A stretch of 62,617 nucleotides of DNA, filler included, from Reclinomonas americana ATCC 50394 (taxonomy: Eukaryota): NCBI GenBank assembly GCA_048213135.1. It is 5 parts of 2 records of this genome, joined end to end, with 100 filler letters (N's around TTAATTAATTAA, not from the genome) between each part and the next. Parts side by side here need not be neighbours in the genome. Positions count along the whole stretch, not along the records: positions 12,632 to 43,915 come from PS015083.1; 4 more parts are not named here. The stretch is one strand, 5' to 3'. The notes beneath the pieces were generated by a model, which was given only the letters and a program-made list of their open reading frames with translations, had not been told where the DNA came from and searched no databases. This document shows positions 3,001 through 52,993 of this stretch, in pieces; positions within the stretch are counted from its first letter, which is position 1; the number at the start of each line of letters is the position of its first letter. The position numbers and the translations under genes are program-made.

Positions 3001-6000
3001 TGGCAGCGGGTCGCTGTTTTTTGACAAGACGTTCACGATCGATGAAGGTACGGCAACAAAATTTCATTGGGTTGTTGCGTTCGGCGACTTATGAAGCGTT
3101 GCGAATGACCCACAGCCAACGTCCCTCCATCTGATATTGCACTGTCGGCGACGACGTACACGCCGCCGACTATCGCCAACCTCGTGGTCGGCACACTGTC
3201 CACCACAGACGGCAACTCGGCGCAGACATTTACATACTCGGTTGTGGGCGGAGCGAATGCGGCCATGTTCAACATCTCTGGCGCGCAGCTGCGCATCACG
3301 ACGGCCGGGCAGAATGGAACGGGCTTGGTGGTGATTGTGCGATCGACTGACAGCGGCAGTGGATCGCTGTTCTTCGACAAGTCATTCACGATCAATGAGG
3401 GTCTGTCTGTTTTCTTTTCTCATGCTGGTTGATGTTCTCACTTTCTTGCCTATTTTATCGTTCAGTGAATGCTGCTCCCACGGACATTGCTCTGTCGGCG
3501 ACGACATACACACCACCGACCACCGCCAACCTTGTTGTTGGCAGTCTGTCGACAACAGACGCCAACTCGGCTCAGACGTTCACGTACACGATTGTTGGTG
3601 GAGCGAATGCGGCCATGTTCAACATCTCTGGCGCGCAACTGCGCATCACAACTGCTGGTCAGAATGGAACAGGGCTGGTGGTGATAGTGCGGTCGACGGA
3701 CAGTGGCAGTGGATCACTGTTCTTCGACAAGACGTTTACGATCAACGAGGGTCTGTGTCCCTACTTGGCAGCGTCTCCATTCCTCAGCTGTTTCTAACTT
3801 TGCCTTCTTCCATCGATCAGTGAATGTTGCACCGACCGACATTGCACTCTCGGCGACGACGTACACGCCGCCAACCACTGCCAATCTCGTGGTAGGCAAT
3901 CTGTCGACAACAGACGCCAACTCGGCTCAGACGTTCACGTACACGATTGTGGGTGGAGCGAATGCGGCAATGTTCAACATCTCGGGCGCGCAGCTACGCA
4001 TCACGACAGCGGGACAGAATGGAACTGGCTTGGTGGTGATTGTGCGATCGACTGACAGTGGCAGTGGATCGCTGTTCTTCGACAAGACATTCACGATCAA
4101 CGAAGGTTTGTCTGTGCTCCTATATGGCAAGTTCTCCATTTCTCAGCTGTTTCTCACTTCCTTGCCTCTTCCCGCTGTCCAGTTAATGTCGCACCGACCG
4201 ACATTGCGCTGTCGTCGACGACGTACACGCCACCGACCACCGCCAATCTCGTGATTGGCAATCTGTCGACAACAGACGCCAACTCGGTGCAGTCGTTCAC
4301 ATACACGATTGTTGGCGGAGCGAATGCGGCCATGTTCAACATCTCTGGCGCGCAGCTGCGGTTCACCTCAGCCGGGCAGTCAGGCAGTGGATTGGTGGTG
4401 ATTGTGCGATCGACGGACAACGGCGTCGGATCTTTGTTCTTCGACAAAACATTTACGGTCGACGAAGGTCTTTTGAATGACGTTGCACATGCTTGTTCGT
4501 GCTTGTTGGTCTCATGCGTTGTTTGGCAGTGAATGTGGCGCCGACGGACATTGCGCTGTCGGCGACGACGTACACACCGCCAACCACTGCCAATGTCGTT
4601 GTCGGTAGTCTGTCCACGACAGACGCCAACCCGGGCCAGTCGTTCACGTACACGATTGTTGGTGGAGCGAATGCTTCCATGTTCAACATCTCGGGTGCCC
4701 AGCTGCGCATCACGACAGCCGGTCAGAATGGAACTGGCTTGGTGGTGATTGTGCGATCGACAGATAATGGTGCATCACCTCTGTTCTTCGACAAGACATT
4801 TACGATCAACGAAGGTTCGTATTATCTTGAAGCAGCGTGTTCTCAGATGCGGTTTCTCATTCGCCCGGTTTCTTTTGTTCAGTGAATGTCGCACCGACGG
4901 ACATTGCACTGTCGGCGACGACGTACACACCACCAACCACTGCCAACCTCGTGATTGGTAGCCTGTCAACGACCGATGCCAACACGGCGCAGACATTCAC
5001 GTACTCGATTGTGGGCGGAGCGAATGCGGCCATGTTCAACATCTCTGGCGCGCAACTGCGCATCGCAACAGCGGGTGTCATCGGTGATGGGTATCAAGTG
5101 ACCGTGCGATCGACTGACAGCGGCAGTGGATCGCTGTTCTTCGACAAGACATTCACAGTCAACGAAGGTGTGTTGCCACAAGCAATCTGCAAGTGACTTT
5201 ACTCATCATATGTCTCACGTACGTGTCGTGTGCAGTGAACCTTGCGCCGACGGACGTTGTGCTTTCGTCGGTGACGTATGCGCCGCCGACCACTGCCAAT
5301 GTCGTGGTGGGCACTCTGTCAACCACGGATGGCAATTCGTGTCAGACTTACACGTACACGATTGTGGGTGGAGCGAATGCGGCCATGTTCAACATATCTG
5401 GCGCGCAGCTGCGCATCACAGCAGCCGGTCAGAATGGAACTGGCTTGGTGGTGATTGTGCGATCAACCGACAGCGGCAGTGGATCGCTGTTCTTCGACAA
5501 GACGTTCACAGTCTACGAAGGTGCGTACTTGTAGACCATGGTTGTGTTCTTACGCTTGTCCGCTCATCGACACACGATTGCAGCCAATGTCACGCCCACG
5601 GACATCGCGATATCGATTGCGGCGTACACGTTGCCGACGACTGCCAACATGGTTGTGGGAAACCTGTCGACGACTGATGCCAATTCATGTCAGACGTACA
5701 CGTACACGATTGTGGGCGGAGCCAATGCGGCCTTGTTCAATATCTCTGGCGACCAGCTGCGCATCACTGCGGCCGGACAGACGGGCAGCGGACTGGTGGT
5801 TATTGTGCGCACCACCGACAGTGGCAGTGGGTCGTTGTTCTTTGACAAGACCCTTGTCATTGACGAAGGTACGGCAATTGGTGTCACGCTTTGTTGTTTC
5901 TGTTGCGTCAGCAAAGCTTACACCGCTCTTGACGATGAGTAGTCAATCTTCCTCCGACGGACATCGCACTGTCAGCGACGACGTATGCGCCACCGACCAT

Positions 6001-9000
6001 TGCCAATGTCGTGGTGGGCACTCTGTCGACGACTGATGCCAATTCGGCGCAGACATTCACGTACACGATTGTGGGTGGAGCCAATGCGGCCATGTTCAAC
6101 ATCTCTGGCGCTCAGCTGCGCATCACGACAGCCGGGCAGAACGGAACGGGGCTGGTGGTAATTGTGCGAGCGACAGACAATGGCGCATCACCTCTGTTCT
6201 TCGACAAGACATTTACGATCAACGAAGGTTCGTATTATCTTGAAGCAGCGTGTTCTCACATGTGGTTTCTCTATTCACTCGTTTTCCTTTGTTCAGTCAA
6301 TGTTGCGCCGACGGACATCGCACTGTCGGCGACGACGTACACACCGCCGACCACCGCCAACCTCGTGATTGGTAACCTGTCTACAACCGATGCCAACACG
6401 GCTCAGACGTTCACGTACACGATTGTGGGTGGAGCGAATGCGGCCATGTTCAACGTCTCGGGTGCCCAGCTGCGCATCACGATAGCTGGGCAGAATGGAA
6501 CCGGCCTGGTTGTGATTGTGCGATCGACAGACAACGGTGCATCGCCATTGTTCTTCGACAAGACATTCACGATCAACGAAGGTCAGTCGCCGTTTGCTTC
6601 ACACATTACCTGCCGTTCTTACCCAGTCACCTTCTTCTATCGTGCAGTGAATGTGGCGCCGACGGACATTGCGCTGACATCGATGACGTATGCACCACCG
6701 TCAACAGCCAGCGTTGTCGTCGGATCGCTCTCGACAACCGATGCCAACTCGTGTCAGACGTACACGTACACGATTGTGGGCGGGGCGAATGCTGCTTTGT
6801 TCAACGTCTCTGGCGACCAGCTGCGCATTACTGCAGCCGGACAGACAGGCAATGGGCTTGTGGTTATTGTGCGCACCACCGACAGTGGCAGCGGGTCGCT
6901 GTTCTTTGATAAGACGCTTGTTATTGATGAAGGTACGGCCAGGGTAGTCTCACGAGTTGTCACACCGTTCGAAGAGGCCTCATCGTTTGTCGTACATTTG
7001 TAGCCAACGTTCCCCCAACGGACATTGCGCTGTCGTCGACGACATACACGCCACCGACCACTGCCAATGTCGTGGTCGGCGCTCTGTCGACAACCGATGC
7101 CAACTCGGCTCAGACGTACACGTACACGATTGTGGGCGGCGCGAACGCGGCCATGTTCAACATCTCGGGTGCCCAGCTGCGCATCACAACAGCTGGGCAG
7201 AATGGAACTGGCTTGGTGGTGATCGTGCGATCGAGTGACAGTGGCAGTGGATCACTGTACTTCGACAAGACATTCACAATCAACGAGGGTCTGTCTGTGC
7301 TCCCAGATGGCGAGTTCTTCATTCCACCTGATGTTCTCACTCTTTTGCCTTCTTCCATCGATCAGTGAATGTTGCACCGACGGACATTGCTCTGTCGGCG
7401 ACGACGTACACACCGCCTACCACCGCCAATCTCGTGATTGGCAATCTGTCGACAACCGATGCCAACTCAGCACAGACATTCACATACACGATTGTGGGCG
7501 GCGCGAACGCGGCCATGTTCAACATCTCGGGCGCGCAGCTGCGCATTACGACAGGCGGTCAGAATGGAACCGGCTTGGTGGTGATTGTGCGATCGACAGA
7601 CAACGGCAGTGGATCGCTGTTCTTCGACAAGACATTCACGATCAGCGAAGGTTTGTCTGTGCTCCTATATGGCAAGTTCTCCATACCACCTGATGTTCTC
7701 ACTCCCTTTCCTTCTTACATCGATCAGTGAATGTTGCACCGACGGATATTGCGCTGTCATCGACGACGTACACGCCACCAACCACTGCCAATCTCGTGGT
7801 AGGCAATCTCTCCACGACGGACGCCAATTCGGCGCAGACATTCACATACACTATCGTTGGTGGGGCGAATGCGGCAATGTTCAACATCTTGGGCGCCCAG
7901 CTGCGCATCACGACAGCCGGTCAGAATGGAACTGGCTTGGTGGTGATTGTGCGATCGACAGATAATGGCGCATCACCTCTGTTCTTCGACAAGACATTCA
8001 CGATTAACGAAGGTTCGTACTGTCTTGGAGCTGCGCATTCTCAGATGTGCTTTCTCATTCGCCCGTTTTCATGTGTTCAGTGAATGTCGCACCGACTGAC
8101 ATTGCACTGTCGGCGACGACGTACACGCCGCCAACCACTGCCAATCTCGTGATTGGCAGTCTGACGACAACCGATGCCAACTCGGCTCAGACGTACACGT
8201 ACACGATTGTGGGTGGTGCCGATGCGGCGCTGTTCAACATCTCTGGCACACAGCTGCGCATCACAACAGCCGGCCAGAATGGAACTGGGTTGGTGGTGAT
8301 TGTGCGGACGACTGACAGTGGCAGTGGATCACTGTTCTTCGAGAAGACATTCACAATCAACGAAGGTCTGCGGCGTCATGGATCTCGTTGTTCTCGCTTT
8401 CTTCACTCACTGTTTCGTTCTTCCTTGTTGACCAGTCAACGTTGCACCAACTGATGTTGTGCTCTCGGCTGTGACGTACTTGCCGCCGACGACTGCCAAC
8501 CTTGTTGTGGGAGATCTATCAACGGCGGATGCCAACTCGTGTCAAGCATTCACATACACGATTGTGGGCGGAGCGAATGCGGCCATGTTCAACATCTCTG
8601 GCACGCAGCTGCGCATCACGACAGCCGGTCAGAATGGAACTGGCTTGGTGGTGATTGTGCGATCAACCGACAACGGCAGTGGATCGCTGTTCTTCGAGAA
8701 GACATTCACGATCAACGAAGGTGTGTGCTGCTGTAGATCTGTGTTGTGCATGTGTCTGGTCACTCATCGACTACCATTACAGCCAATGTCATGCCCACGG
8801 ATATCACGTTGTCGGCAACACAGTACGCGTTGCCGGCCACCGCAAATATGGTTGTTGGTGTGCTATCGACAACGGACGCGAACTCGTGTCAGACGTACAC
8901 GTACTCGATTGTGGGCGGGGCGAATGCTGCCTTGTTCAACATCTCTGGCGACCAGCTGCGCATCACTGCGGCTGGGCAGACGGGCAGCGGACTGGTGGTT

Positions 9001-12000
9001 ATTGTGCGCACCACCGACAGTGGCAGTGGGTCGCTGTTCTTTGACAAGACGCTTATCATTGACGAAGGTACGACCAAGATAGTTTTGATTGAGTTGTTGT
9101 TGCGTTTGGCGACTTATGAAGCGTTGCGAATGACGCATAGCCAACGTCCCTCCGTCGGATATTGCACTGTCGTCGACGACGTACACGCCGCCGACCACTG
9201 CCAATGTCGTGGTGGGCACTCTGTCCACAACAGACGGCAACTCGGCGCAGACATTCACATACTCGGTTGTGGGCGGAGCGAATGCGGCGATGTTCAACAT
9301 CTCTGGCGCGCAGCTTCGCATCACAACTGCTGGGCAGAATGGAACCGGCTTGGCGGTGATTGTGCGATCGACGGACAGCGGTGCATCACCTCTGTTCTTC
9401 GACAAGACATTCACGATCAACGAAGGTATGTTTTTGTGTTCTCTTTTTTCCTGCTGACACGGTTCTTATGCGGCGCATTGTAGTGAATGTTGCACCGACG
9501 GACATTGCACTGTCGGCGACGACATATACACCACCGACCACCGCCAATCTTGTGATTGGTAGCCTGTCAACGACGGATGCCAACTCGGCGCAGACGTTCA
9601 CGTACACGATTGTGGGCGGAGCGAATGCGGCCACGTTCAACATCTCTGGTGCCCAGCTGCGCATCACAACTGCTGGGCAGAATGGAACTGGTTTGGTGGT
9701 GATTGTGCGGACGACAGACAGCGGCAGTGGATCGCTGTTCTTTGACAAGACATTCACGATCAACGAAGGTCAGTTGCTTGTTTTTGTTATTCGCGTGTAT
9801 GCTTCTCTAATGATAACACATCTCCTGTAGTGAATGTTGCGCCGACGGACATTGCGATTTCGTCTGTGACGTACTTGCCGCCGACCACGGCCAATGTGGC
9901 CGTCGGTTCGCTTTCCACCGTGGACGCGAATTCGTGTCAGACGTACACGTACACGATTGTGGGCGGAGCGAATGCAGCCATGTTCAACATCTCTGGCGCC
10001 CAGCTGCGCATCACAACAGCCGGACAGAATGGAACTGGCTTGGCGGTGATTGTGCGATCGACGGACAGCGGCAGTGGATCACTGTTCTTTGACAAGACCT
10101 TCACGATCAACGAAGGTGTGTTTGATTACTCTTTTTAGTGTTTTGTATGATTACGCCGTAATCCCCGTTTCGATGTTTCTGCATTGTAGGAAATGTTTCG
10201 CCGTCGGATATTGCTCTGTCGGCGACGGCGTACACGCCTCCGACCACGGCCAATGTCGTGGTGGGCACTCTGTCAACGACCGATGCCAATTCGGCTCAGA
10301 CGTTCACGTACACGATTGTGGGTGGAGCAAATGCGGCCATGTTCAACATCTCTGGCGCTCAGCTGCGCATCACGACGGCTGGACAAAATGGAACCGGTCT
10401 GCTTGTAATTGTGCGATCGACAGACAATGGTGCATCACCTCTGTTCTTCGACAAGACATTTACGATCAACGAGGGTTCGTATTATCTCGGAGCTGCGTGT
10501 TCTCATCTGTGATTTCTCATTCGCTCGTTTTTTCTCGTTCAGCGAATGTTGCTCCGACGGACATTGCACTGTCGGTGACGACATACACGCCGCCAACCAC
10601 TGCCAACCTCGTGATTGGTAACCTGTCGANNNNNNNNNNNNNNNNNNNNNNNNNNNNNNNNNNNNNNNNNNNNTTAATTAATTAANNNNNNNNNNNNNNN
10701 NNNNNNNNNNNNNNNNNNNNNNNNNNNNNCTTCCTACTTACCGATCTATGGTTCAGTGAATGTCGCGCCGACGAACGTTGCCTTGTCGGCCACGACATAT
10801 ACGCCACCGAGCAGCAGCAACATGGTCGTCGGCACACTTTCGACCACAGACGTGAACTCGAACGAGTCGTTTTCGTACACGATCGTTGGCGGTGTGAACG
10901 CAGGCATGTTCAATGTCGTGGCCAACCAGTTGCGCATCACATTGGGCGGACAGAATGGCACTGGCCTGGTGGTCATTGTGCGGTCATCCGATCATGGATC
11001 GTTGTTCTTCGACAAGACGTTTACCATCAACGAGGGTTTGTGTGTGCTTTCGTTTGCGTTGACAATTATTTATCTCTTTCGTGACCTCCGACAATTGTCG
11101 CTTCCCACCAGTCAATCTGGCGCCGGCAGATATCACATTGTCGAATAACATGTTTGCAACACCGTCGCTGGCGAATGTGGTTGTCGGCACACTTGGTGCT
11201 GTCGACGCCAACAGTGGGCAGGTGTTCACCTATACAGTTGTTGGTGGGACAGACGGCAATCTGTTCAACATTGCTGGCTCGCAACTCCGTGTGACGAATG
11301 CCGGAGTCAGCGGTAGCGCGCTGTCGGTAATCGTTCGGGCGACAGATAATGGCGCAGGGACGTTGACGCTGGACAAGACATTTTCGATCAACGATGGTTT
11401 GTGCGATTCTTGTTGCAGAAGCGCCGTGGTCACACGCTTACGCATGCATGTTCTGTTCACGCACTGAACAGCTGGCACGGCGGTGGACGTCACATTGTCC
11501 AGTGCAACTTACATGCCGCCGTCGACCGCCAATCTTGTGGTTGGCACACTGGCGGTCGTGGGTGGCGCGAATGGACGGACGTACACGTTCTCCGTTGTCG
11601 GCGGCATCAACAGCAACTTGTTCAACATTTCTGCAGCACAGCTGCGAATCAGCAGTGCCGGCATCAATGGAACCGGCCTGCAGGTGGTGGTTCGTGCGGC
11701 CGTCAACGGAATGGCATCGTTGTATTATGACAAGTCGTTTATTATCAACGAAGGTGTGTAGCATGTGTGTACTGCTTGCTTTCTTGTTTCTCATGTCCAT
11801 GCCAGCCAACGCGGTGCCGACGGACATTATGTTGTCGAGCGACACGTATGTTCCGCCGGCGGCGATGAATGCGGTGATCGGGACGCTGAGTATGGTGGAC
11901 GCCAACTGCTGTCAGACGCCAAACTTCAGCGTGGTTGGCGGAGCAGACTTTGACAAGTTTGGAATCGCGGACAATCTGCTGGTCGCTCGTGTGGCTGGCG

Positions 12001-15000
12001 GATTGAGGGGGTCGAATTTGGAGGTGACGGTGCAAGTGAATGACGGCTACAGCGTGTTCCAGAAGACGTTCTACATCAACGAAGGTTTGGTGACTGACAG
12101 AAAAACGAAACAAGTGAGCCCTCACCAATGTGCGCTCACCTTTATGCTGTAGATGCGATTCCCGCGTCGAGCATCGCGATATCTGCCAGCACATTCTCGC
12201 CTGGCGCCACTCTCAACAGTGTGGTGGCGACGCTGTCGCCAGTTGGTGTCAACTGCTGTCAGTCGTACACGTACTCGATTGTGGGTGGGCCTTCCGCCGG
12301 CAATTTCGTGGTCGTTGGCAACGAATTGCGATCGAATGTGGCGGCGCTGACGGGCGATAGCCAGACCGTGACGATTCGTATCGATGACGGTACAGGCAAT
12401 ACGTACGATCAGACGATTGTGCTGAACGAAGGTGCGTTGTAATGCGAGTGCATTTCTTTTGCACGGGTTGAATATGTGCTGATGTTGTGTGCTGTGTGTA
12501 CACAGCCAACACGCCGCCAACGGCCATTTCANNNNNNNNNNNNNNNNNNNNNNNNNNNNNNNNNNNNNNNNNNNNTTAATTAATTAANNNNNNNNNNNNN
12601 NNNNNNNNNNNNNNNNNNNNNNNNNNNNNNNGTAGTGCCGCAACCGCCGACGGACATTTCTCTGACGTCGCTCACGTATGTGCCGCCGACGGCTACGACG
12701 GATTCCGTCGTTGGCGTGTTGAGCGGGACGGATTCCAACCCAACCGATTCGCTGACATTCTCAATCGTGCCTGGTGGCAACGCGGCGCAATTCTCGATCG
12801 TGAATGGAAATCAGCTGGTGTTGCACGGTGCCAATCAAGCCGGCAACGCACTGTCTGTGACGGTGCGTGTGACGGACGGCAATGGCAACACATTTGACAA
12901 GACGTTTACGGTCAACGAGGGTGAGTTATGGGGATGTATGGGTGGATGTGTTGTTGTTGTGGAAGGATTGGCTGACGTGTATTTACTTTTGTCAGCGAAC
13001 GTGCCGCCGAGTAATGTCAGTTGCAGTGCCGCGACATTCACACCGCCTGTTGCTGCGGGTACTGCAATCTGCACGCTGTCGACAACAGATGCTAATTGCT
13101 GCCAGTCGTTTACGTACTCCATCACGGGTGGAAGCGACAGCTCCAAGTTTGCCATTGTTGGCAATCAGCTGGTGGCAAGCGCTGCCGTTGGTGGTGTGTC
13201 GGGCAACGGACTGCAGGTGACCGTCACTGCCAATGACGGGAATGGCGGGTCTGTATCGAAGACGCTTGCATTCAGCGAGAGTTGCGTCGCTGCACGCTGA
13301 CCGTTGTCGCTGCACGCTACTCGTGAACTCATAAGGTGCGGTTAACTTGAACACTAGGGAACGTGCCGCCGACGGACATCCAGTTGACAAGCGCGACGTA
13401 TACCTCGCCAACAACCGCTGCGAATACGGTGGTGGGCGCGCTGAGTGCGACTGACGCAAACTCGGGTGATTCTGTGACGTACTCGATTGTGCCGGACCCG
13501 AATTCGCCTGCAGTGTTTGGCATCGTGGGATCCCAGTTGGTGCTGCTTTCTGCCGGACAAGTGGGCTCGAATCTGAGTGTGACGGTCCGCGCAACGGACA
13601 GCAGCGGAGCCACACTCGATAAAACGTTCACTATCCACGACGGTGTGTGTGTGTGTGTGTGCATGTGTGCCTGTGGCGATGACAAAGAGAGTTCCTCATT
13701 CTGATTCCCTATGTGTTTTATTTCGCTCTCGCAGCTCCGTCAGCTCCAACAGACATTAGCCTGTCGAGCACAACGTACACAGTGCCGACGGTGTCCGCCA
13801 ACACTGTGGTGGGCGTGCTGACGACGGCAGACGTCAACACGCAAGAGACATTCACCTATGCGATTGTGGGTGGAGCCGATGCTGCGGCCTTTGATATTGT
13901 TGGCGGCAATCTTGTATTGCGGTCGGCAGGCGCGTCGGGCACTGGCTTGCAGGTCAACGTGCAAGTGACGGATTCGAATGGATTGCAGTACACCAAGAGC
14001 TTTGTGATCAACCAAGGTAAGCGTGAGGTCGGTGCCAGGACAGGGCGACGAGCCAACGCGTCCTCACTCCTGTGGCCCCATTGTGCGCAGCAAACTCACC
14101 TCCGACATGGATCAATCTGACGAGCACGAGTTACACGACACCGACTGCCTCACCAAATGTCGTGGTGGGGACATTGAGTGCTGTGGACGGTAATTGCTGC
14201 CAGACGTACACGTATACGATTACGGGAGGCGCACAGCAAGCGCTCTTCAACATTTCCGGGTCACAACTGCGGCTGAATGCAGCCGGCCAGACGGGAAACA
14301 ACCTCGAAGTTGAGGTGCAGGTGGACGACGGCAACGGAGGCACGTATCGGCAGACGTTCTTGCTCTCTGAAGGTGAGAGTATCCGTGCGCATGTTCACGA
14401 CAATGCGACAGCGTGTTGCCTTCATGCTCACACCGAGGTGTGCCGTCGTCTTGTGCACAGGCAACGGCAACGCGACCGATATTCTTCTGTCAAACATCCA
14501 ATACACGCCGCCGACGGCCACACCAGGTNNNNNNNNNNNNNNNNNNNNNNNNNNNNNNNNNNNNNNNNNNNNNNNNNNNNNNNNNNNNNNNNNNNNNNNN
14601 NNNNNNNNNNNNNNNNNNNNNNNNNNNNNNNNNNNNNNNNNNNNNNNNNNNNNNNNNNNNNNNNNNNNNNNNNNNNNNNNNNNNNNNNNNNNNNNNNNNN
14701 NNNNNNNNNNNNNNNNNNNNNNNNNNNNNNNNNNNNNNNNNNNNNNNNNNNNNNNNNNNNNNNNNNNNNNNNNNNNNNNNNNNNNNNNNNNNNNNNNNNN
14801 NNNNNNNNNNNNNNNNNNNNNNNNNNNNNNNNNNNNNNNNNNNNNNNNNNNNNNCCTTGCACGTACAGGGAATGTGGCGCCGACTGCCGTGAGCTTGTCG
14901 GCGTCCACGTACACTCCTCCGACTGGTGCAGCGCACGCCGTCATTGGCACTCTGTCAACCACAGATGCAAACACGGGCGACTCGTTCACGTACCAGATCG

Positions 15001-16464
15001 TGGGTGGAGTGGACAGTGCGCTGTTTGAGATTGCCGGCTCGCAGCTGCGGTTCGTGGCGGCCGGTCAGCGCGGCAGCAACTTGAAGGTTGCAGTGCAGTC
15101 TACAGATGCTGGTGGCGCCAAATATGCACAACTGTTTACGATCAGTGGCGGTGAGCTTGGTTTTGCGTGCTGTAGCGAATGAGCTCATGTTCAGCTTACA
15201 TGTGTTGTTTCCCTGCTCGCGTGCATCCCGCTGTCCATTGCAGCGACTCTCGCTCCGACGGACATTACGCTGTCGGCGGCGCAATATGTGCCAGCGACCG
15301 GACTTAGCAACGTGGTCATAGGCGTGCTGTCAGCAACGGACGTCAATGCACAGGACGCCTTCACGTTTTCGATTTCCGGTGGTCCCGATGGCGCACTGTT
15401 TGACATTGTTGGATCCAGTCTGGTGCTTCGCAACCCACAACTCGCGGGCGATAACCTGCAAGTGACTGTGCGAGTTGCAGACAGCTCGGGCAATGCATTC
15501 TTCAAGACGCTGACTGTCAATCAAGGTACGTGTTTCTGTAATGCGTGTTCGTGCGCGGCTGTACCTTTTGTCTCATGTGCCTTCGCCTGCTTTGCAGCCA
15601 ATGTGGCTCCGACGGATATTTTGCTGTCTTCGACACGATACGCACCACCCCTCGCCACGGGGTCGACTATTGGCCTGCTGAGCTCTGTGGACGACAATTG
15701 TTGCCAATCGTTTGTGTACTCGGTTGTCGGTGGCGCCGACCAGGCCAAGTTTGCGATTGTCGGCAACGAGTTGCGGTCAGCCGTGGCCGGCTTGACGGGC
15801 AACAATCTGCAAGTGCAAATCCAGACAAACGATCAGCATGGTGGCACGCTGACAAAGACATTCACTATCAACGAAGGTGTGTGGGGGGTGCGCGCGTGAT
15901 GCTTTTCGGTTGCAAGTGTAGCTTAAGGCCACGTGTGACGCAGCCAATGTGGCGCCGACCAACATCTCGCTTTCGGCCAGCACATACACGGCACCGACGG
16001 GCGCGGCGAATGTGGTGGTCGGAACGCTGTCTGTCACCGACGCGAACACTGGAGACTCGCACGTGCTGAGCTTGGTGGGTGGTACGGACATGGGCCTGTT
16101 CAACATTTCGGGGACATCGCTGCGCATCAGTGCGGCCGGTCAGCGGGGATCTAGTCTGCGAGTGATTGTGCGTGCACAAGACAGCGGCGGCGCGACAGTG
16201 GACAAGTTGTTTACGATTGTGGACAGTTGCGCTGGCGTAGACGTGGGTGAGGGTGGTGGGTTGTCGATGCGCTTACTGTGTGTTTCCCTGTTGAATCCAA
16301 CAGCACCGACGGCTCCGACGGACATCACCATCACGGGACTAACGTACCTGCCGCCGACCGCCACAGGCAATGTGATGATTGGGTCGCTGGTGGCAGTGGA
16401 CAGTAACTCGACGGACTCGTATGTGTTCTCTGTGCCGCCCATGTCGCCAGTGGACATTGTCGGT
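1..16464 (+). repeat. Tandem array of cadherin-like domain exons (43 complete + 5 partial), period about 345-365 bp
   Basis: Exons are 279-285 nt (e.g. 303-587, 661-945, 1012-1296 ... 15944-16225) and encode VNVAPTDIALSATTYTPPTTANLVVGxLSTTDANSAQTFTYTIVGGANAAMFNISGAQLRITTAGQNGTGLVVIVRSTDNGSGSLFFDKTFTINE. They are separated mostly by 57-80 nt (up to about 93 nt) phase-1 GT-AG introns. Confidence 0.95.
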
Positions 16465-19400
16465 NNNNNNNNNNNNNNNNNNNNNNNNNNNNNNNNNNNN
16501 NNNNNNNNNNNNNNNNNNNNNNNNNNNNNNNNNNNNNNNNNNNNNNNNNNNNNNNNNNNNNNNNNNNNNNNNNNNNNNNNNNNNNNNNNNNNNNNNNNNN
16601 NNNNNNNNNNNNNNNNNNNNNNNNNNNNNNNNNNNNNNNNNNNNNNNNNNNNNNNNNNNNNNNNNNNNNNNNNNNNNNNNNNNNNNNNNNNNNNNNNNNN
16701 NNNNNNNNNNNNNNNNNNNNNNNNNNNNNNNNNNNNNNNNNNNNNNNNNNNNNNNNNNNNNNNNNNNNNNNNNNNNNNNNNNNNNNNNNNNNNNNNNNNN
16801 NNNNNNNNNNNNNNNNNNNNNNNNNNNNNNNNNNNNNNNNNNNNNNNNNNNNNNNNNNNNNNNNNNNNNNNNNNNNNNNNNNNNNNNNNNNNNNNNNNNN
16901 NNNNNNNNNNNNNNNNNNNNNNNNNNNNNNNNNNNNNNNNNNNNNNNNNNNNNNNNNNNNNNNNNNNNNNNNNNNNNNNNNNNNNNNNNNNNNNNNNNNN
17001 NNNNNNNNNNNNNNNNNNNNNNNNNNNNNNNNNNNNNNNNNNNNNNNNNNNNNNNNNNNNNNNNNNNNNNNNNNNNNNNNNNNNNNNNNNNNNNNNNNNN
17101 NNNNNNNNNNNNNNNNNNNNNNNNNNNNNNNNNNNNNNNNNNNNNNNNNNNNNNNNNNNNNNNNNNNNNNNNNNNNNNNNNNNNNNNNNNNNNNNNNNNG
17201 CTTGCGCTGCCGTCGGCGAATGTGGAAGACATGGCTGCCATTCAGTGCACACTGGAGCCTGTGATCAACTCGATTGCGCATCGCACGGTAGCCAGCCTGG
17301 TCAGTATTTCTTTCGATGGAGGCAGGTAGAGAGAAGCATCTGTCACTGACCTACGATGATGGGACTTGCTGAGCGCAGACGGGCAAGCAAGGGGCCGTGG
17401 AAGTGGATACACCATCGTTCACGTTGCGAGCGCAGAAGCTGGATCCGTCGGTGACGTCGACGACAAGTGGCGTGTACTCGGGTGAGAAGAGAGCACTCCT
17501 ATGTCTCTAATGTGTGTGTGGAGGCTGACTTCAGGACACGTACACGTGCATGTAGTCACTGTGGAGTCGTTGGCGTACTTGAACAGCACGAGCGCGCTCA
17601 GCACTCCGCTTGTGATGCTACCACATGGTATTACCAAGCGATACGCCGGTGCGTGCTAGGCGTGAAACGCATGAGAGTGTGACGTCATTGTGCTGACACC
17701 AATCGCACGTGATATAGGAACGGAGGACCTGTTTTATGCGCTCGTCGAGGTATGCAGCCGCCCTTGTGTGTGCAGCTTCCTTGACGATAATATCCTAACG
17801 TGTGCGTGCTTCGGGGTATCATCAAGGTGGGTTTCAAGGGTGCGCCGATCGTCAACGCCACCAATGACTATGGCAGGCAATCGGCACCTGTAAAGGTGTA
17901 CGCGTTCAGCATCCAGGTGATCCTGTCGCCACTCGATTTGTGCTGCTTCGCATTTCTTACTGTCTCTTTCGTGCCTGTTCACAACCGAGTAGAGTTATCG
18001 ATCGGCTGTGGGTGTGCAAGATGAGCCGGAGCCCATGGTGCTTATTGTCCCCGAGTGGCAAACCACTGTACGCAAGTACAACTCGACACTGTCCAACATC
18101 GCCATGTGCATGATGCAGAACTGCTCGCAGTCAGGTGTGATGCGTACTGTGCGCTTGTATGACCAATGAGCAACGCAGTTTCTCATGCATTTTGCCCTTG
18201 ACGGATGACAGTTGCAAGCGAGTACATTTTCAATGTCACGACCAAGGATCCGACGGTGCTGGAGGTGCCNNNNNNNNNNNNNNNNNNNNGAATACCTGGA
18301 TTCCGCTGTGTGTGGCACGCGACGTGTGCAAAGCCGGGAACCGAGTGAGTGCCAGCGGACTGAGTACATATCTACTGGTGGACCCGATTGCTCGAGGAGA
18401 AAAGCCACATGTTTGTCGTTGGTTGTGTGCCATCACAAGCGATGCCGTTCGATGGCTCACCTGCGCCTGTGTTTTTTTCTTCCCTATCTGTCGATGCAGG
18501 TGTCTGGCGTGTACTGTGCAACAACTCACCTTACTGATTTTGTTTCGTCCCTGCTCGTTAGCGAAGATTCCTCACTTTTTGTCCGTTCTGCTCACGATTA
18601 TTTGGCGCACGTGTAGACTCTGGACCTGTCCATCGTGCCGGGCTTCAACTTCTTCGCTGGTGGTGCAACCTTTATTGGAGTGGGCAGTCGGCTGGGCCTC
18701 TTCCTCAGCCCCACTTTCATTCTTCTGAGCACGTACTTTGCACTTGCTGTGGCGGCGTGCATTGTTGTGTGGAGACTTGATCGTGCAACAGATAACGAGG
18801 TGCGTACTGGAACCACATCGTGGTGAGAGTACGTTTGAGCATCTGCTGACTGGAATACATGTCGTCACCACAGCAACGTGTGCTGCAGCAGACGCGCCTG
18901 ACGAATATCCTCCGCCTTGCTGACGTGACGGCACAGCAAGTTGCCGCTGCAGAGTTGATGAAGGGATTGCACGAAGGAGCGCCGGACGCGTGCAGTCCGA
19001 AGTTGGAGGAGCGTGCAATGCGCCACAAGCGAGGATGGCTCAATGTGAAGAGAGGACTGGAGGTGGTCCGAGCCCTTCATGGCCAGGGCAGTGTAGCTTC
19101 CAGCGCTCAACAGGAGGAGGCATACGATCCTGTGTTGCCAGTCAAGCCCACTGGCAATCCATCGCGACGTTCGTATTTGCCACCACTTGTTCGTGCAACT
19201 GCAGAGGTAGATCAGCTTTGTTCGCATCATGCGTGAGAGACGGTTTTACTGATGCTACGTGTTTGTTGGGCACAGCAGCCAGTCGTTGATTCGAATCACG
19301 GACAGCGTACTGCCCCAAGCGACGACTTGCGTGAGGAAGGACCACTGTTCCTTCCCGGACAGACATCCGAGAGTGTGGATAACTCGGTTCTTCACTTTGA

Positions 19401-22400
19401 GGACCACTGGCGCTCTCATCGTCCTCGCCCAGCTGCTGTTCCGCTTCCTCAGCACCCTGTTTGGTCAACACCACGTCTCGGCGACGATGATAGAGGAGGG
19501 GCTGCTGGTGACGGTGCGGATACCCAAGCTCTTGCCGAGGGGTCTATGGTTCCAAACACTCGTGTCACGGAGGACATGCCATGTGCGCCGGAGGCGCCGA
19601 GCGTGCCAGGCCCGTCTGCTGTGCCTCTTCATCGACGGCGGCGGGAGAGATTCGGCCTTGGTCGCCGCCGTCGCTCGCTTTCGCTGGGTCACGAGATTCT
19701 GTCTGCGGTGCGGCCAACAGTCGCAGTCCTCCACTTTGTCCAACGTGACTGACGTGCTACCTGCAGAAAAATCCTGCTATCCAGCTATCTGAACGTGCTG
19801 TTAGTCCTGGTGCCGCGTCTAGTTCTGGTTGGAGCAGAGGTTCGGGACGATGGCATGATGTCATTCCGCTGGCTTCACTGGCCACAACTCCGGCTTCAGC
19901 ATCTACGCGAAACGTTGGGGATATCCCTGTTGCCGACAGCGAGAACCAGCACCGTCCGGGTGCCGCTCTCCGTCGCTTCCAGGCACTCGTCCGGTTGATC
20001 ATCGCCATTCGCCGCACTCGATCGCTGCGTGAGCGTGTGCTGGATCGCCTCTCGTCAATGTGGCGTAATCATCTGTGGATATCGGCCGCCGTCGAACGCG
20101 GCCGTTCGTCGCGTGTGCGCCGGCTGGACAAGGTGTTGGTGAGTAAGAACAAATGAGTGGTTGTTCTGTGAATGTGTGAGCCAACTCCCCGCTTGCCACA
20201 GTTGCTCTGGGTGTACGTGGTCTGCGCTTGCTGCGTCAACGCAGCCGTGGCGACCTCGTCAACAGGAAGCATGTTGCTGACGTTGATGCAAGTTCTTAAT
20301 GTGGCCGTCATTGGTACGTTTGGTGTTCCTCTGTTTCCAGAATGCAGACCTGATCATGACAGGATATTGTTCTCCTTGGTTACTATGTAGGCGCTGTTGT
20401 TGCCTTCCCTTTGATAGTCGTCATTGGAGTCATTTTCCATCTGACTCCCCGTCGATCCGGATCTGCTGCGTTGGATGCGGAACACTTTGGTTGCGTTCTC
20501 GGGTGTGGGTTAGTGGAAATCAACCGCACCAGATGACCTCACGTTGCTGCGCAATTGGACGTATGCACACAGAGTCGGTGCTCCTCACGCAAACGAAGGC
20601 GTTGGCCGTGGACAACCAGGCTCCCGTGTCACGAGTCATTGATGTGTCCGAGCTGTCTCCGTCAGGGAGCGGTGGCGGCGGTGGGGTGAGTGAGTTGTGT
20701 TGCGGCGCAGCATCCTGATATATGTCAGCTCACCGTGCTGCTTTTATTNNNNNNNNNNNNNNNNNNNNNNNNNNNNNNNNNNNNNNNNNNNNNNNNNNNN
20801 NNNNNNNNNNNNNNNNNNNNNNNNNNNNNNNNNNNNNNNNNNNNNNNNNNNNNNNNNNNNNNNNNNNNNNNNNNNNNNNNNNNNNNNNNNNNNNNNNNNN
20901 NNNNNNNNNNNNNNNNNNNNNNNNNNNNNNNNNNNNNNNNNNNNNNNNNNNNNACGGAGAACTTGAGCTGTGCGAGCGGAAAGAGGATTGATTGTAGGAT
21001 GAGAGTGTCGACAGCCAGACTCAGGAAAAGAAAGTGGTTATGAAGAACAGGCTGAGAAGAGGAGAAGAACAAACAGTGGGTCTGAAATTGTGTTGGCCAA
21101 AGAGAGAGGGCGATTGTGAGCGAATGAGCGAGACGCAAGATGCCGAAGAAGTGTTGCGGGCCAGAGACGCAGTAGAGGAAGGAAGGGGTGTGCGCATGTG
21201 TCCGAAAGTGTGGAGAGCCAGAGCCGTGCGTGGGGTGTTCCTATCGCGGATAGCGGAAAGAGGAGTGATTGTAGGATGAAGGAAGAGTGTCGACAGTCAG
21301 AGAGTGGTCGTGAAGGACAGGCTGCTGCGTTGGGAATGTGTTCGAGGCAGCCAATGCTGGGAAGAGATTTTCTGTGTGTATACTCAACCGGGTTCTGTCG
21401 CATTGCAGCCCGCCGCCCACGTGTACAAGCCCGTCAAAGAGGTGCATCTGCAGCATGTTGCGGTCGGCCATGACACGGTCCTGGGATTCGGCGTGGGACT
21501 GCATGTTGTGCGAGCAGTGGAGGGCGTGTCGGCGTATGCTGCAGTTGCGCACCCGTCAAAAGAGCTTGCTGCGCGTGTGTGCGTGGACGACGTGTGAGCT
21601 TACAGTCGTCGATTCTACTCGTTTGTCGCAGCCCGTACTCGGCATGCAGGCGTCTCCATCGCTGGTCGTGCTTGATCGCGTGCTCTTTGTCAACTGCGCC
21701 AAGACAGTTGAGACTGATCCGACGCTGAGCGACGCGAATGCAACATCAGCCGTGTCTGTGGAGCGACGCGGCGGCACCACCGAGAGCACCCTCTTGCTTC
21801 CACACGGCGCAGCATACGGAAAGGAAATTGTGGCGCAAGTGGAAGGCGGCAACGCTGCCGGCTCGTCCATTGCGCAGCTGTGGCGTCGTGCTCTGCGGCG
21901 CAATTTGCCGTTCGCTTTCAAGATTGCTGGTCGCCTTATGTGTGTCATTTTGGCCGTGGCCATGTCGGTGGCCACCGTGACTACCATCACCAAATTCCGC
22001 ACTCAAGAGGAGGACATGGCGGTGGTGAGTATTTCATGTGGGCGCGAGAGTGGAAGGAGAGGGAGAGGGAGAAGGAGAGGGAGAGAAAGGAGAGGGAACT
22101 CCTCTCTTGCTCTCAAAGTCTCATGCTGCCAATCTATCTCTCTTCTGTGCAAGCGAAAGACAAGGAGATAGAGCGAGAGAAGCAATGCGACTGACTCACT
22201 GCCGTGCCCTTCTATCCGTAGACTACGTCGTCTCTGTTGAGCGATGTGCTTCATGCACTGGTGCTCGAGCCGGTGTGGTTGATATTGTTGCAAGTGGCGG
22301 CGTGGATGTTGTGGAAGTGGAGATCGTGGCAGCGTCAGAAGAAGCAGCAGGACAGTCAGACACAGCCGCAAGGACTGGAGCCGACACAAACTGAGCAGGT

Positions 22401-22533
22401 GCAACCTGCTGCAGCTGGGGAGGAGCAGGAAGCTGCCGCACGCAGGCAACAAATACAAGAGCAGCATGAACAGGAGAGGCTGCAGCGGCGCCAGCAGGCG
22501 CTGGATCGGTTCCGCACAGGTGTCGTTGCGTGA
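1..22533 (+). CDS. Giant multi-exon cadherin-repeat / GAIN-GPS / polycystin-1-like 5-TM receptor; 5' end outside the window, more than 5000 aa visible
   Basis: 48 cadherin-like exons (1-16464) are followed by phase-consistent GT-AG exons: 17200-17299, 17379-17481, 17556-17648, 17718-17749, 17827-17916, 17993-18134, 18212-18264, 18291-18410, 18500-18541 (VSGVYCATTHLTDF), 18617-18799 (TM1 ..CIVVWRLDRATD), 18874-19206, 19276-19707, 19767-20138 (NHLWISAAVERGRSSRVRRLDKVL), 20202-20313, 20391-20489 (GAVVAFPLIVVIGVIFHLTPRR), 20573-20685, 21409-21576, 21632-22024 (LPFAFKIAGRLMCVILAVAMSV), 22222-22533 (HALVLEPVWLILLQ..stop). Continuity across N-gaps is inferred. Confidence 0.8.
18515..18541 (+). other. 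GPS (GAIN-domain) autoproteolysis motif C-A-T-T-H-L|T-D-F
   Basis: Matches the CxxxHL|TxF consensus of polycystin-1 and adhesion GPCRs, and lies about 35 aa before a hydrophobic TM helix. Confidence 0.85.
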
Positions 22534-23153: not shown

Positions 23154-24960
23154 TCACCAACAATGGCTGGGATTAGCGAGACACCGGTGCATCACAACCT
23201 CGGCGTCCTCGACGATGAAGCAGCGCAGCACCAACTCTGGCAGGCACCGCGAATACAATGCCTCCTCTNNNNNNNNNNNNNNNNNNNNNNNNNNNNNNNN
23301 NNNNNNNNNNNNNNNNNNNNNNNNNNNNNNNNNNNNNNNNNNNNNNNNNNNNNNNNNNNNNNNNNNNNNNNNNNNNNNNNNNNNNNNNNNNNNNNNNNNN
23401 NNNNNNNNNNNNNNNNNNNNNNNNNNNNNNNNNNNNNNNNNNNNNNNNNNNNNNNNNNNNNNNNNNNNNNNNNNNNNNNNNNNNNNNNNNNNNNNNNNNN
23501 NNNNNNNNNNNNNNNNNNNNNNNNNNNNNNNNNNNNNNNNNNNNNNNNNNNNNNNNNNNNNNNNNNNNNNNNNNNNNNNNNNNNNNNNNNNNNNNNNNNN
23601 NNNNNNNNNNNNNNNNNNNNNNNNNNNNNNNNNNNNNNNNNNNNNNNNNNNNNNNNNNNNNNNNNNNNNNNNNNNNNNNNNNNNNNNNNNNNNNNNNNNN
23701 NNNNNNNNNNNNNNNNNNNNNNNNNNNNNNNNNNNNNNNNNNNNNNNNNNNNNNNNNNNNNNNNNNNNNNNNNNNNNNNNNNNNNNNNNNNNNNNNNNNN
23801 NNNNNNNNNNNNNNNNNNNNNNNNNNNNNNNNNNNNNNNNNNNNNNNNNNNNNNNNNNNNNNNNNNNNNNNNNNNNNNNNNNNNNNNNNNNNNNNNNNNN
23901 NNNNNNNNNNNNNNNNNNNNNNNNNNNNNNNNNNNNNNNNNNNNNNNNNNNNNNNNNNNNNNNNNNNNNNNNNNNNNNNNNNNNNNGTGCTCTCCTGCAT
24001 CCGCTGGACAGCCTGCATGGCCGAGCGCGCGGTGGCGAGCTCGGAGTGAGCAAGGCCGCTTGGCGTCGGCCACACTCGTATCGTCTTGTCGTGGCCACCG
24101 GCACTCACAATGTGCCGACCGTCGGGGGTGATGGCGACGGACCACACCCAATGCGTGTGCCCATCCATCCGTCGCACTTGCTCTCCACTCGCCAACGACC
24201 ACACTCGCACAGTCTTGTCCTCACTCCCACTCACAGCGTGTTGCCCGTCGGGAGTGACGGCGACACACAAGACAACGGCAGTGTGCCCCACCAACCGGCG
24301 CATCTCTTCCCCACTCGGCAGTGACCACACACGAATGGTCTCGTCCAGACCCCCACTCACGATGCACTGACCATCGGGANNNNNNNNNNNNNNNNNNNNN
24401 NNNNNNNNNNNNNNNNNNNNNNNNNNNNNNNNNNNNNNNNNNNNNNNNNNNNNNNNNNNNNNNNNNACTAGCCAGTGACCACACCCGCACTGTCGCGTCC
24501 CCACCACCGCTCACAATGTGCTGACCATCAGGGGTGACGGCGATAGACTGCACAGCTCCAGTGTGTCCCACCAGCCGCCGCACTTCCTCCTCCGTCGCCA
24601 TTGACCACACTCGGATTGTCTCGTCTCGGCTCCCGCTCACGAAGTGCTGACCATCGGGAGTCACCGCAACAGAGCGCACCAAATTCGTGTGCCCCTTTGA
24701 CCACCACACTTCCTCGCCCTCCGCCACAGACCACACCCGCACTGCCGCTGCGCGTCCCCGCCTCCGCTCACAATGTGTGCACCGTCGGGAGCAACGGCGA
24801 CACACCACACTCCGTCGGTGTGCCGCTCCCATCGACGCACTCGTGCTCCACCCGCCAGCGGCCACACACGCACTGTGTTGTCATTACTCCCGCTCACAAC
24901 GTGCTGATTGCTGGGTGCGACAGCGACGCACCACACCGGGAATGTGTGTCCCTCCAGAAC
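23154..24960 (-). CDS. WD40-repeat protein (about 7 blades) with a conserved C-terminal tail; apparent frameshift near 24750 (pseudogene or assembly error); first exon not resolved
   Basis: Repeats of GHTxxVxxVAVTPDGQHxVSGxxDxTVRVW follow an acceptor ctctccag at 24961. After a gap the tail reads EEALYSRCLPELVLRCFIVEDAEVV..W*. The frame shifts at GAC GCG CAGCG GCA GTG CGG. Confidence 0.8.
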
Positions 24961-27188
24961 CTGGAGAGGGGAGAAGGGGGAGTTGGAGGCNNNNNNNNNN
25001 NNNNNNNNNNAAAGAGAAGAGGTGCACAGATTCATCCGACGGATCATCGTCGATCTCAACTTCGTGTGCGTGCGTGCGTGCGTGCTTGCGTGTGTGTATG
25101 CTTGGTGCATGATGAAGTGAGAGAGTGTGTATGCGTGCATGATGAAGTGAGAGAGAGTGCGTGTGTTGTGTTGTTCCGATGTCATCCTGTGCTGTGCGCA
25201 CGTGTAGACAAGGCTGTCTCTCTGCAGCCTCACACTCGAGCGAGTCCATTGGTGAGCGACCGCCATCAGCACACAAGGTGCTGAGCCTTACATCGAGTCA
25301 TGATTCGGATCATCACACAATGCAACATGCTGCGTTTTGCGCATGCACTGCAAGAAGAACTGCATCGTGGATCTGTGGTGGCCCCTCGCAGACGGCGCAC
25401 TGCANNNNNNNNNNNNNNNNNNNNAACACGACCAGTCAATACATGCACCGCGTGTACATGTATACACGTTCACAAGTGGTGATCGTTCAGTTGGTCACCA
25501 TTATTGGCGTAAAGTTCGCTGCCGTATGCACTGGTTGCATCCTTGCGGGATCTCTCACCCTCACGTGGTACGGAGGCTGAACCAGTGCGAGACAGAAGGG
25601 ATTTCAGAACCCGGCAACACGGCAACAGACGACGCACGAAATTCTGTCTCAGACAACCCGGCACAAAAGGAGATGCTTGCCAACAGCACGCTTGCCAACA
25701 ACGTTGGCCCCAGCACCAGCACTGTCTCCGCGACGCTGCCGACATCAACATCAATCCATGTCCATGGCATTGAAACGAGGGAGCACCATGGCACCTCAAA
25801 TGCCGAGAGGAACACAAGCAACTGATGCTTCCACAGACTACTCTCCGTTCACAGCGCTGGCCAGCATGCCTGCAAGATAGTACAGCGGCCAGCAACCAGT
25901 AATGCAACCGGCATCAGGTTCGCTGAGCGGAGACAACCCAGACGTCCAGACGCGCGTGACCAGGATATCCGTATTGATTGTGAGGCGTGCGCCCACTGAC
26001 AGTCTCAACAGCAGCAACGGGCATCGCCGAATGGCAGCAGGGTCACATCCATCACAGACTCTCTCGAACACCGGCCCAGCAGTGGTGACCACACAGAGAC
26101 TGGTCCACAACAGGTTCTGCATGCTGAGTCAGGTGCCACAGCAAGCTAATGCTCCACCTCCACCTTGTGCATGCAAGAGAGCAACACAGTGACAGGTACG
26201 TGANNNNNNNNNNNNNNNNNNNNNNNNNNNNNNNNNNNNNNNNNNNNNNNNNNNNNNNNNNNNNNNNNNNNNNNNNNNNNNNNNNNNNNNNNNNNNNNNN
26301 NNNNNNNNNNNNNNNNNNNNNNNNNNNNNNNNNNNNNNNNNNNNNNNNNNNNNNNNNNNNNNNNNNNNNNNNNNNNNNNNNNNNNNNNNNNNNNNNNNNN
26401 NNNNNNNNNNNNNNNNNNNNNNNNNNNNNNNNNNNNNNNNNNNNNNNNNNNNNNNNNNNNNNNNNNNNNNNNNNNNNNNNNNNNNNNNNNNNNNNNNNNN
26501 NNNNNNNNNNNNNNNNNNNNNNNNNNNNNNNNNNNNNNNNNNNNNNNNNNNNNNNNNNNNNNNNNNNNNNNNNNNNNNNNNNNNNNNNNNNNNNNNNNNN
26601 NNNNNNNNNNNNNNNNNNNNNNNNNNNNNNNNNNNNNNNNNNNNNNNNNNNNNNNNNNNNNNNNNNNNNNNNNNNNNNNNNNNNNNNNNNNNNNNNNNNN
26701 NNNNNNNNNNNNNNNNNNNNNNNNNNNNNNNNNNNNNNNNNNNNNNNNNNNNNNNNNNNNNNNNNNNNNNNNNNNNNNNNNNNNNNNNNNNNNNNNNNNN
26801 NNNNNNNNNNNNNNNNNNNNNNNNNNNNNNNNNNNNNNNNNNNNNNNNNNNNNNNNNNNNNNNNNNNNNNNNNNNNNNNNNNNNNNNNNNNNNNNNNNNN
26901 NNNNNNNNNNNCGCGTATTGCAGTCGTATGTTGCTGCTCTTCGAGTTGCGGGGAGTTTGTTGCAGTTGCGGCCAGTGTGCATGCGCGCGAGTAGTCGAAT
27001 TTGGCGTGTTTGTGCTGCAGTGGGGGACGCCGGATTTCGTTCTTGCAAAATTCTTATCTGGTGAGCAATTACCACTCAACCCCGTGTCGTTTCATCCAGT
27101 CACCCACTCACTTGTGCGTCTCCCTCGCCTTTATATACTGTTCAGCCACAGGTGGCCGTCGCGTGGTTTTGCTGCACGCACAAGCCAC

Positions 27189-30100: not shown

Positions 30101-30498
30101 GACTTTGTTGCGCTCTCCACTGGCGGTTCGATGATTGTTGACGTGCCGATTATTCGGGCCCAGTTGTTTGCCGGTCCACTCGGCGAGCTCGCCACGCAGT
30201 TGGCCGACTTTGACGCCGTGAACGGCGACTCGGCGCCACTTGATGTGGAGTTTGATCGCATTACGCCCACCGTAGACTGGGTGGCCCTGGTGCAGCAGCT
30301 GCAATCCGTTGCGCAGCAGGCACCAGCCGACACCTCTCCTCTGGCGCTGTGCAGTATGCTTTCGTCGGCAACCGCATCCGTGATCCCCGCTGGCTCGTTG
30401 TCGGGCTCGCTTGTCGGTACCTTCCAATTCGACGGCGGCACATCGTTGACCGGCCGTGCGGCACTTCGACACCAGTACTGGATGGACTTGACTGCCGG
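27189..30498 (+). CDS. Large hypothetical secreted/membrane-targeted protein (more than 900 aa visible, 3' end lost in a gap)
   Basis: Basic plus hydrophobic leader RRRRRWRAPALPSAAVLTLLVIWMGLVAVVMA. Short GT-AG exons lead into long open exons at about 27979-29327 and 29490-30498, separated by a pyrimidine-rich in-frame intron at 29328-29489. No recognisable domain; the start codon is tentative. Confidence 0.7.
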
Positions 30499-30518
30499 NN
30501 NNNNNNNNNNNNNNNNNN

Positions 30519-43283: not shown

Positions 43284-43915
<632 letters not shown>

Positions 43916-44719: not shown

Positions 44720-52492
<7,773 letters not shown>

Positions 52493-52941: not shown

Positions 52942-52993
<52 letters not shown>

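Follow-up and report, generated by a model that had tools for sequence, protein, structure and literature searches.

What kind of surface protein is encoded between positions 18617 and 22533 of a stretch of Reclinomonas americana DNA, and does it belong to the polycystins? The stretch, called the window here, is 62,617 nucleotides (nt) long with filler and joins five parts of two records from the draft eukaryotic assembly GCA_048213135.1 (R. americana ATCC 50394); 28 runs of N lie across it. The original prediction, made from the sequence alone, described the locus as one open reading frame (ORF) for a channel-less polycystin. Such a protein would be a stand-alone GAIN sensor with five transmembrane (TM) helices, without a PLAT domain or a TRP-like half, and its coiled-coil tail would recruit a separately encoded PKD2-type channel. 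The analysis described here instead favours, with somewhat better than even confidence, a very large adhesion-type surface receptor. In the gene model this protein combines at least 46 cadherin repeats, a GPS-type motif, an N-out/C-in anchor of at least five helices, two large cytoplasmic loops and a polar tail, and it would signal adhesion or force through a cleaved ectodomain. The best reading is a GAIN/GPS-type adhesion or mechanosensing receptor whose anchor is lineage-specific, and neither the polycystin name nor the PKD2 partnership is supported.

A spliced gene with a cadherin-repeat ectodomain

No single ORF spanning 18617–22533 was found, and the locus is therefore a spliced gene rather than the uninterrupted frame first proposed. 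Three-frame translations, codon scores and splice matrices trained on introns of the same gene yielded a predicted GT–AG model of about ten exons, which encodes 838 amino acids (aa) and contains a single, terminal stop (Table 1). The donors accepted in this model score between −2.1 and 6.4. At the level of the gene model the features described for the locus are real, and they are seen only after splicing. As modelled, 18617–22533 is the 3′, C-terminal and membrane-embedded end of a giant gene. The repeats upstream of the anchor run to the start of the window, so the gene begins upstream of it.

These repeat units are about 94 aa long and recur with a period of about 355 nt. Three of the 46 are incomplete where they meet a gap or the start of the window, and the introns between repeat exons are of phase 1-1 and 57–77 nt long (32 introns measured). 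An AlphaFold model of one unit, computed from 18 aligned rows of window repeats, shows seven strands and a pLDDT of 87.4. Searched against the PDB with Foldseek, this model matched cadherin-superfamily chains in all 45 listed rows, with TM-scores of up to 0.73 and a best E of 1.4e-3, which lies just above the 0.001 line. A word-based protein search listed 16 relatives of the repeat, 14 of which carry PF00028. The best of them, P0007, has nine Cadherin stretches (E 5.6e-88) and also matches Cadherin_CELSR2_9th; judged by its N-terminal motif, it looks bacterial. The bacterial and animal PF00028 proteins are thus homologues of the 94-aa repeat in sequence and fold, and differ from the present protein in that GPS, PLAT, REJ and PKD_channel appear in the precomputed Pfam lists of none of the 16 listed relatives.

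The Pfam Cadherin model itself reached only E 0.082, on one of four window repeats scanned at E ≤ 10, and PF00801 (PKD repeat) matched none of these four. A metagenome scan with one repeat gave 469 pattern matches, of which none was confirmed. Partial likeness to the calcium-binding linker motifs between extracellular cadherin domains was noted by eye at the exon ends. Judged by sequence relatives and predicted fold, the ectodomain repeats are cadherin domains and not PKD repeats.

At the protein level about 30 of the 46 repeat exons are almost the same, and a few intron types recur among them, a pattern suggesting that blocks of several exons were recently amplified in tandem or evolved in concert. 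Divergence is greater in the last 15 or so repeats.

The pre-membrane region that separates the cadherin array from the anchor is presumed to be GAIN-like. A gap hides its start and leaves about 250 aa in view; a further gap of 20 N (18270–18289) falls within the exon preceding the motif exon. The pre-membrane exon pieces that were tested gave no Pfam match, and PF02010 (REJ) was absent from the exon pieces of 17200–18613, a negative limited to the roughly 250 visible aa that follow the 735-N gap. The region ends in a GPS-like motif, the sole occurrence of its pattern when the window is translated in six frames, 28 residues ahead of helix 1. The residues following the threonine of the motif keep a T-x-F-x-L-x-L spacing. 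The tethered-agonist consensus given in the accessible part of PMC12716839 is TxFAVLM, and GAIN domains are described in the excerpted text of PMC3321182 as always lying immediately N-terminal to the first helix.

The membrane anchor and the 3′ end of the gene

Five Kyte–Doolittle (KD) peaks of 1.94–3.0 (19-residue window) mark the anchor in the spliced model; elsewhere only weak peaks of 1.2–1.6 occur. When 15 residues were considered on each flank, 20 lysines and arginines fell on the predicted cytoplasmic sides versus three on the outer sides, which fits an N-out/C-in topology. The five helices and the cytoplasmic C-terminal tail of the original prediction are thus retained, with five as a minimum number. 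The successive loops comprise 387, 6, about 201 and 20 aa and are followed by a 72-aa tail; both long loops are predicted to be cytoplasmic.

The first loop is basic and of low hydrophobicity. It contains 12.9% Arg, 10.9% Ala, 9.6% Leu, 9.3% Ser and 8.0% Pro, and 57 Lys and Arg versus 43 Asp and Glu. Together, Pro, Arg, Ser, Gly, Gln, Glu, Lys and Ala make up 60% of it, and the hydrophobic fraction stays at 0.13–0.33 along most of its length. The original prediction had placed about 350 aa of Pro/Arg/Ser-rich sequence between TM1 and TM2; the long, arginine-rich loop stands, and proline and serine are only moderately abundant. Its statement that PLAT is missing here agrees with the exon-by-exon Pfam search of the three loop exons, in which no family was found at E ≤ 10, PLAT (PF01477) included.

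The end of this loop (19940–20138, + strand), just before helix 2, forms a basic amphipathic run that by eye is IQ-like or calmodulin-binding-like. Helix 4 is preceded by a comparable basic stretch, which recurs in conserved form in the relative P0004, described below.

The tail, rich in Gln (26%), Arg (12.5%) and Glu (11%), was expected to end about 75 aa after TM5. At 72 aa it is close to that length, and it ends with the residues quoted in that prediction. A single-sequence AlphaFold model of the last exon places helices at residues 4–46 and 68–102, the latter block with pLDDT 76–90. The tail is thus predicted to be helical, with a poor heptad fit to a coiled coil: in any register, at most 25% of the a and d positions are Leu, Ile, Val, Met or Phe. 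For the proposed coiled-coil tail, a 35-residue helix is thus predicted, and the coiled-coil call is weak.

Helices 3 and 4 are joined across an atypical intron of 723 nt, set against 57–155 nt for the 46 other introns measured. It contains a 205-N gap and a direct repeat (20975–21058 and 21252–21328, spaced by about 277 nt) that is purine-rich like the sequence past the final stop; repeat expansion could account for both the size and the gap. Between 20954 and 21408 stops occur in all frames and coding scores are negative. Immediately afterwards, 21409–21591 has a coding score of +8.1 in the frame continuing 20685, versus −3.4 and −19.9 in the other frames, and the acceptor at 21409 (6.4) is the strongest of the region. 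The exon that starts here may be joined to the helix-4 exon by a 55-nt intron (21577–21631), by longer introns from 21442 or 21478, or through a sequencing frameshift. Whichever variant of this join holds, the reading frame downstream is unchanged and the five strong helices are retained. Two other joins were rejected: an intron at 21592–21649, because P0004 aligns upstream of 21650, and a join from 21575 to 21605, which would need a 31-nt intron.

Relatives of the anchor are few. When the helix-4 exon was searched with phmmer against 1.84 billion representatives, six proteins were obtained at E ≤ 0.001, among which there was no PKD1-family protein. Five of the six were dismissed as unrelated repetitive proteins that match over 7–10 short stretches each and carry no polycystin or G-protein-coupled receptor (GPCR) domain. 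The remaining protein, P0004, is an ORF of 145 aa called on a Logan contig of 1449 nt, and it is alone in its cluster. Its alignment with the helix-4 exon is collinear (31% identity over 135 columns, E 2e-17) and spans the cytoplasmic segment and the basic stretch ahead of helix 4. The helix-4 exon is conserved in this one other organism and is therefore a part under selection. By these searches the anchor family appears to be rare, with its helix-4 part conserved in at least one other organism.

Word-based protein searches found no relatives of the helix-4 exon at lengths of 241–2000 aa, and only P0004 with alignment A1 at similar lengths. A metagenome scan with A1 produced 208 pattern matches and no confirmed one. 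PDB sequence searches with three exon pieces remained at chance level (best E 0.17) and contained no polycystin chain. The residues of P0004 that precede the aligned part read as a pyrimidine tract and CAG in the frame of the candidate acceptor at 21631, and this may mean that the intron position is conserved.

The most likely end of the gene is 22533. Coding scores downstream of this position are negative in all frames, and a convergent WD40-repeat gene is present from about 1.45 kb beyond the receptor stop, 1004 nt of the interval being N. A six-helix channel half and its large outer domain would hardly fit into this space. At 22520, 11 nt upstream of the stop, a possible donor has a score of 3.6. 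Splicing from it to 23120 adds 18 residues and then meets a stop. The three other acceptor candidates for this donor enter gaps after 4–15 residues, and a short alternative 3′ end is possible.

The missing TOP/TRP half of the original prediction is upheld. The Pfam scans, run on sets of 20, 12 and 8 exon translations, contained neither PF08016 nor PF20519. PKD_channel was also absent from all 198 ORF pieces of at least 90 aa on both strands between 22.5 and 62.6 kb, a search that shorter exons and gap-hidden sequence would escape.

Table 1. Coordinates of the receptor gene model, its gaps and the convergent neighbouring gene in the window.
Feature	Position	Strand	Basis or remark
46 tandem cadherin-fold repeat units, one per exon	1..16437	+	local hidden Markov model from window-repeat alignment A2
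735-N gap between last cadherin repeat and pre-membrane region	16465..17199		hides start of presumed GAIN-like region
Eight short exons, presumed GAIN-like	17200..18541	+	exon joins, open frame; about 250 aa visible
GPS-like motif C-x3-H-L-T-x-F, end of 42-nt exon	18515..18541	+	pattern C.{1,4}HL[ST].F
Predicted exons, first five	18617-18799, 18874-19206, 19276-19707, 19767-20138, 20202-20313	+	GT-AG
Predicted exons, last five	20391-20489, 20573-20685, 21409-~21576, ~21632-22024, 22222-22533	+	GT-AG
Post-cleavage stalk and helix 1 exon	18617..18799	+	KD 2.36; acceptor 4.0; donor 6.4
Cytoplasmic loop 1, 387 aa, basic, low hydrophobicity	18874..20138	+	exons 18874-19206, 19276-19707, 19767-20138
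Helix 2 and helix 3 with 6-residue outer loop between	20202..20489	+	exons 20202-20313, 20391-20489; KD 2.4, 3.0; flank charges
Start of cytoplasmic loop 3	20573..20685	+	alternative donor at 20690
Atypical 723-nt intron	20686..21408	+	contains 205-N gap 20749-20953
Probable loop-3 exon	21409..21576	+	frame continuing 20685; acceptor 6.4; 3′ end uncertain
Conserved cytoplasmic segment and helix 4 exon	21632..22024	+	KD 2.18; 5′ edge 21606, 21632 or 21650
Last exon: helix 5, 72-aa tail, stop TGA 22531-22533	22222..22533	+	KD 1.94
Convergent WD40-repeat gene	23986..24990	-	Pfam WD40 E 6.7e-30, 2.7e-20, 4.6e-21 on three pieces

Proposed mechanism and competing explanations

In the favoured reading, the pre-membrane region would fold as a GAIN domain and cut itself at the H-L/T site, and the cadherin chain would remain non-covalently attached after cleavage. 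A pull on this chain, through adhesion or flow, would then expose or move the tethered stalk, and the helix bundle may relay the signal to partners bound to the tail and the large basic loops. The anchor has no pore-forming half and would act like the cleaved fragment of an adhesion GPCR or of polycystin-1; none of the analyses places it in either family.

Several observations weigh against this reading. The Pfam GPS model found no match at E ≤ 10 on the 38-aa motif piece, and the usual C-x-C spacing ahead of H-L-T is not preserved. GPS/GAIN is hence assigned at the level of the motif, given that Pfam GPS is silent, the C-x-C spacing is not kept, the preceding exon is gapped and the region is split over many exons. 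The GAIN–5TM sensor of the original prediction survives in so far as a GPS-like motif precedes a multi-pass anchor without a channel half; the Pfam silence tells against it. Exon-piece Pfam scans also revealed no partner, G-protein motif or enzymatic domain. Helices 3 and 4 are linked only across the long, gapped intron, and the 20 nt upstream of the gap (75% pyrimidine, with a branch-like CTCAC) resemble a normal intron end. An exon of up to about 68 codons may be hidden in the 205-N gap, and further exons, even two extra helices, are possible. The five helices therefore represent a minimum.

This last point leads to the idea that the anchor is an adhesion-GPCR-like, seven-transmembrane (7TM) domain, with two further helices in a gap-hidden exon or in the weak segments of loop 3. 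The intron-end-like sequence lies 43–63 nt from the donor, an even number of added helices would preserve the charge topology, and loop 3 contains two weak KD peaks of 1.26–1.35. Cadherin repeats followed by GAIN and 7TM domains form the Flamingo/CELSR layout. Further likenesses to the adhesion GPCRs are the GPS-type motif, the tethered stalk with its T-x-F-x-L-x-L spacing and the multi-pass anchor, and, by analogy, a likely shared property is that adhesion or force acts on an ectodomain that has been cleaved and is held non-covalently. However, there are five strong hydrophobic segments rather than seven, and the weak segments contain charged residues and do not reach the customary cut-off of 1.6; in P0004 one of the two is conserved, including a D-R pair. 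A first intracellular loop of 387 aa would be unusual for a class-B receptor, and a long intron would be needed after the gap regardless, since stops fill all frames up to 21408. No 7tm_2 (PF00002) match was found at E ≤ 10 on the helix-bearing exons, and HormR, EGF and laminin-G had no exon-piece matches. A seven-helix anchor is accordingly considered unlikely.

The same intron could instead mark a boundary between two genes, or a misassembly. The receptor would then end past helix 3, at the stop at 20716–20718, and helices 4 and 5, together with the tail, would form a separate small two-helix protein. The unusual length of the intron, with its gap and repeats, fits such a boundary, as does the likeness of the purine-rich sequence after 20954 to that past the final stop. 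An in-frame ATG is present at 21644, and the sole relative, P0004, is a stand-alone ORF with an M start near this point. Against this, 21409–21591 scores as coding in the frame that continues from 20685, follows the region's strongest acceptor and contains no Met, and both exon junctions are phase-compatible. By charge bias, loop 3 both starts and ends on the cytoplasmic side, as expected if the chain is single. P0004, for its part, is an ORF call on a short contig, and its first residues align to intron sequence here. Two genes or a misassembly are thus improbable.

The polycystin interpretation draws mainly on the architecture of the anchor. According to the excerpted text of PMC8357825, PKD1-family proteins have 11 helices, of which TM1–TM5 form an N-terminal domain and TM6–TM11 a TRP-like one, so that the helix count after the GPS motif equals TM1–TM5. 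The family resemblance extends to a large repeat ectodomain, a GPS-type H-L-T before helix 1, a big cytoplasmic first loop and a predicted C-terminal tail helix, and the organism is ciliated. The loops alternate long-short-long-short with the long ones cytoplasmic, a pattern that presumably resembles the topology of human PKD1. Members of the family without a channel are on record: the accessible portion of PMC1934368 describes sea-urchin SpREJ proteins with 0, 1, 2 or 6 TM helices, PLAT being present in 5 of 10, so that PKD1-family members with 0–6 TM helices and without PLAT exist. A channel-less or pre-fusion polycystin-1 relative, whose tail helix would recruit a separate PKD2-type channel, could thus be imagined at this locus.

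The sequence does not bear this likeness out. REJ, PKD, PLAT, PKD_channel and Polycystin_dom are absent from all scanned exon translations, which removes the basis of the polycystin identity first proposed, and the TRP-like six helices were not found. The repeats are cadherins instead, and none of the six phmmer matches at E ≤ 0.001 is PKD1-like. The three exon pieces searched against the PDB have no relative there, polycystins included, and no sequence likeness to the family emerged among the exon pieces searched. The heptads of the tail are poor and no PKD2 gene lies within the window. The GPS motif is common to adhesion GPCRs, and so GPS alone is not a polycystin marker. On the available sequence, the protein appears to have in common with the PKD1 family only the GPS-type motif, the helix number five and the loop pattern. 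A channel-less polycystin-1 relative is hence regarded as very unlikely. In a related proposal, the anchor would be genuinely homologous to the N-terminal domain of the PKD1 family (GAIN plus TM1–TM5), fused to a cadherin array instead of a TRP-like channel and acting on a separate PKD2-type channel, perhaps on the flagellum; this too is regarded as very unlikely.

Genomic surroundings and wider significance

Beyond the WD40-repeat gene, the window contains a multi-exon IFT122 gene (44915–51187, − strand) with two beta-propellers, TPR and a zinc ribbon by Pfam. IFT122 is present, and the organism therefore builds cilia or flagella. By Pfam, the window further holds a Ras-family GTPase (31969–32502, +), a Methyltransf_4 (tRNA methyltransferase-like) gene (43400–43913, −), a second WD40 protein (52842–54401, +) and a Peptidase_C78 fragment (59842–60111, +). 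The interval 26913–30499 (+) carries open frames of 362 aa and 895 aa (the latter at 27815–30499) with 63% G+C and no Pfam match. A pattern of 44 N, 12 bases and 44 N recurs at 10630–10729, 12532–12631, 43916–44015 and 52742–52841 and looks like an artefact of assembly or masking.

Self-cleaving GAIN/GPS modules are documented, in the text excerpted from PMC3321182, on two anchors, the seven-helix one of adhesion GPCRs and that of the PKD1 family. The GAIN–7TM module is confined to holozoans, with GAIN in other genes elsewhere, according to the part of PMC12716839 at hand; a GAIN-type motif on another anchor in R. americana fits this distribution. The protist GAIN proteins of Dictyostelium, Tetrahymena and Monosiga offer a parallel in setting, with a GPS-type motif directly before the first helix in a unicellular host; the same excerpt of PMC3321182, which gives neither their helix number nor the composition of their ectodomains, does not document the combination of a cadherin array with a five-helix anchor among them.

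The value of the locus at present is that of a lead, as the case is built on a gapped draft and a predicted gene model. If the anchor were related to the five-helix domain of PKD1, the question of how a sensor half and a channel half came together in polycystin-1 would become directly testable. Were the PKD1-homologue reading true, the sensor half of polycystin-1 would be seen as a free-standing module, before or without fusion to a channel. In the favoured reading, a flagellated protist would link a cadherin array, by way of a GPS-type motif, to a different anchor of roughly five helices. This would constitute a third arrangement, and would show that the pairing of cadherins with a cleavable tether extends beyond the Flamingo/CELSR proteins of animals.

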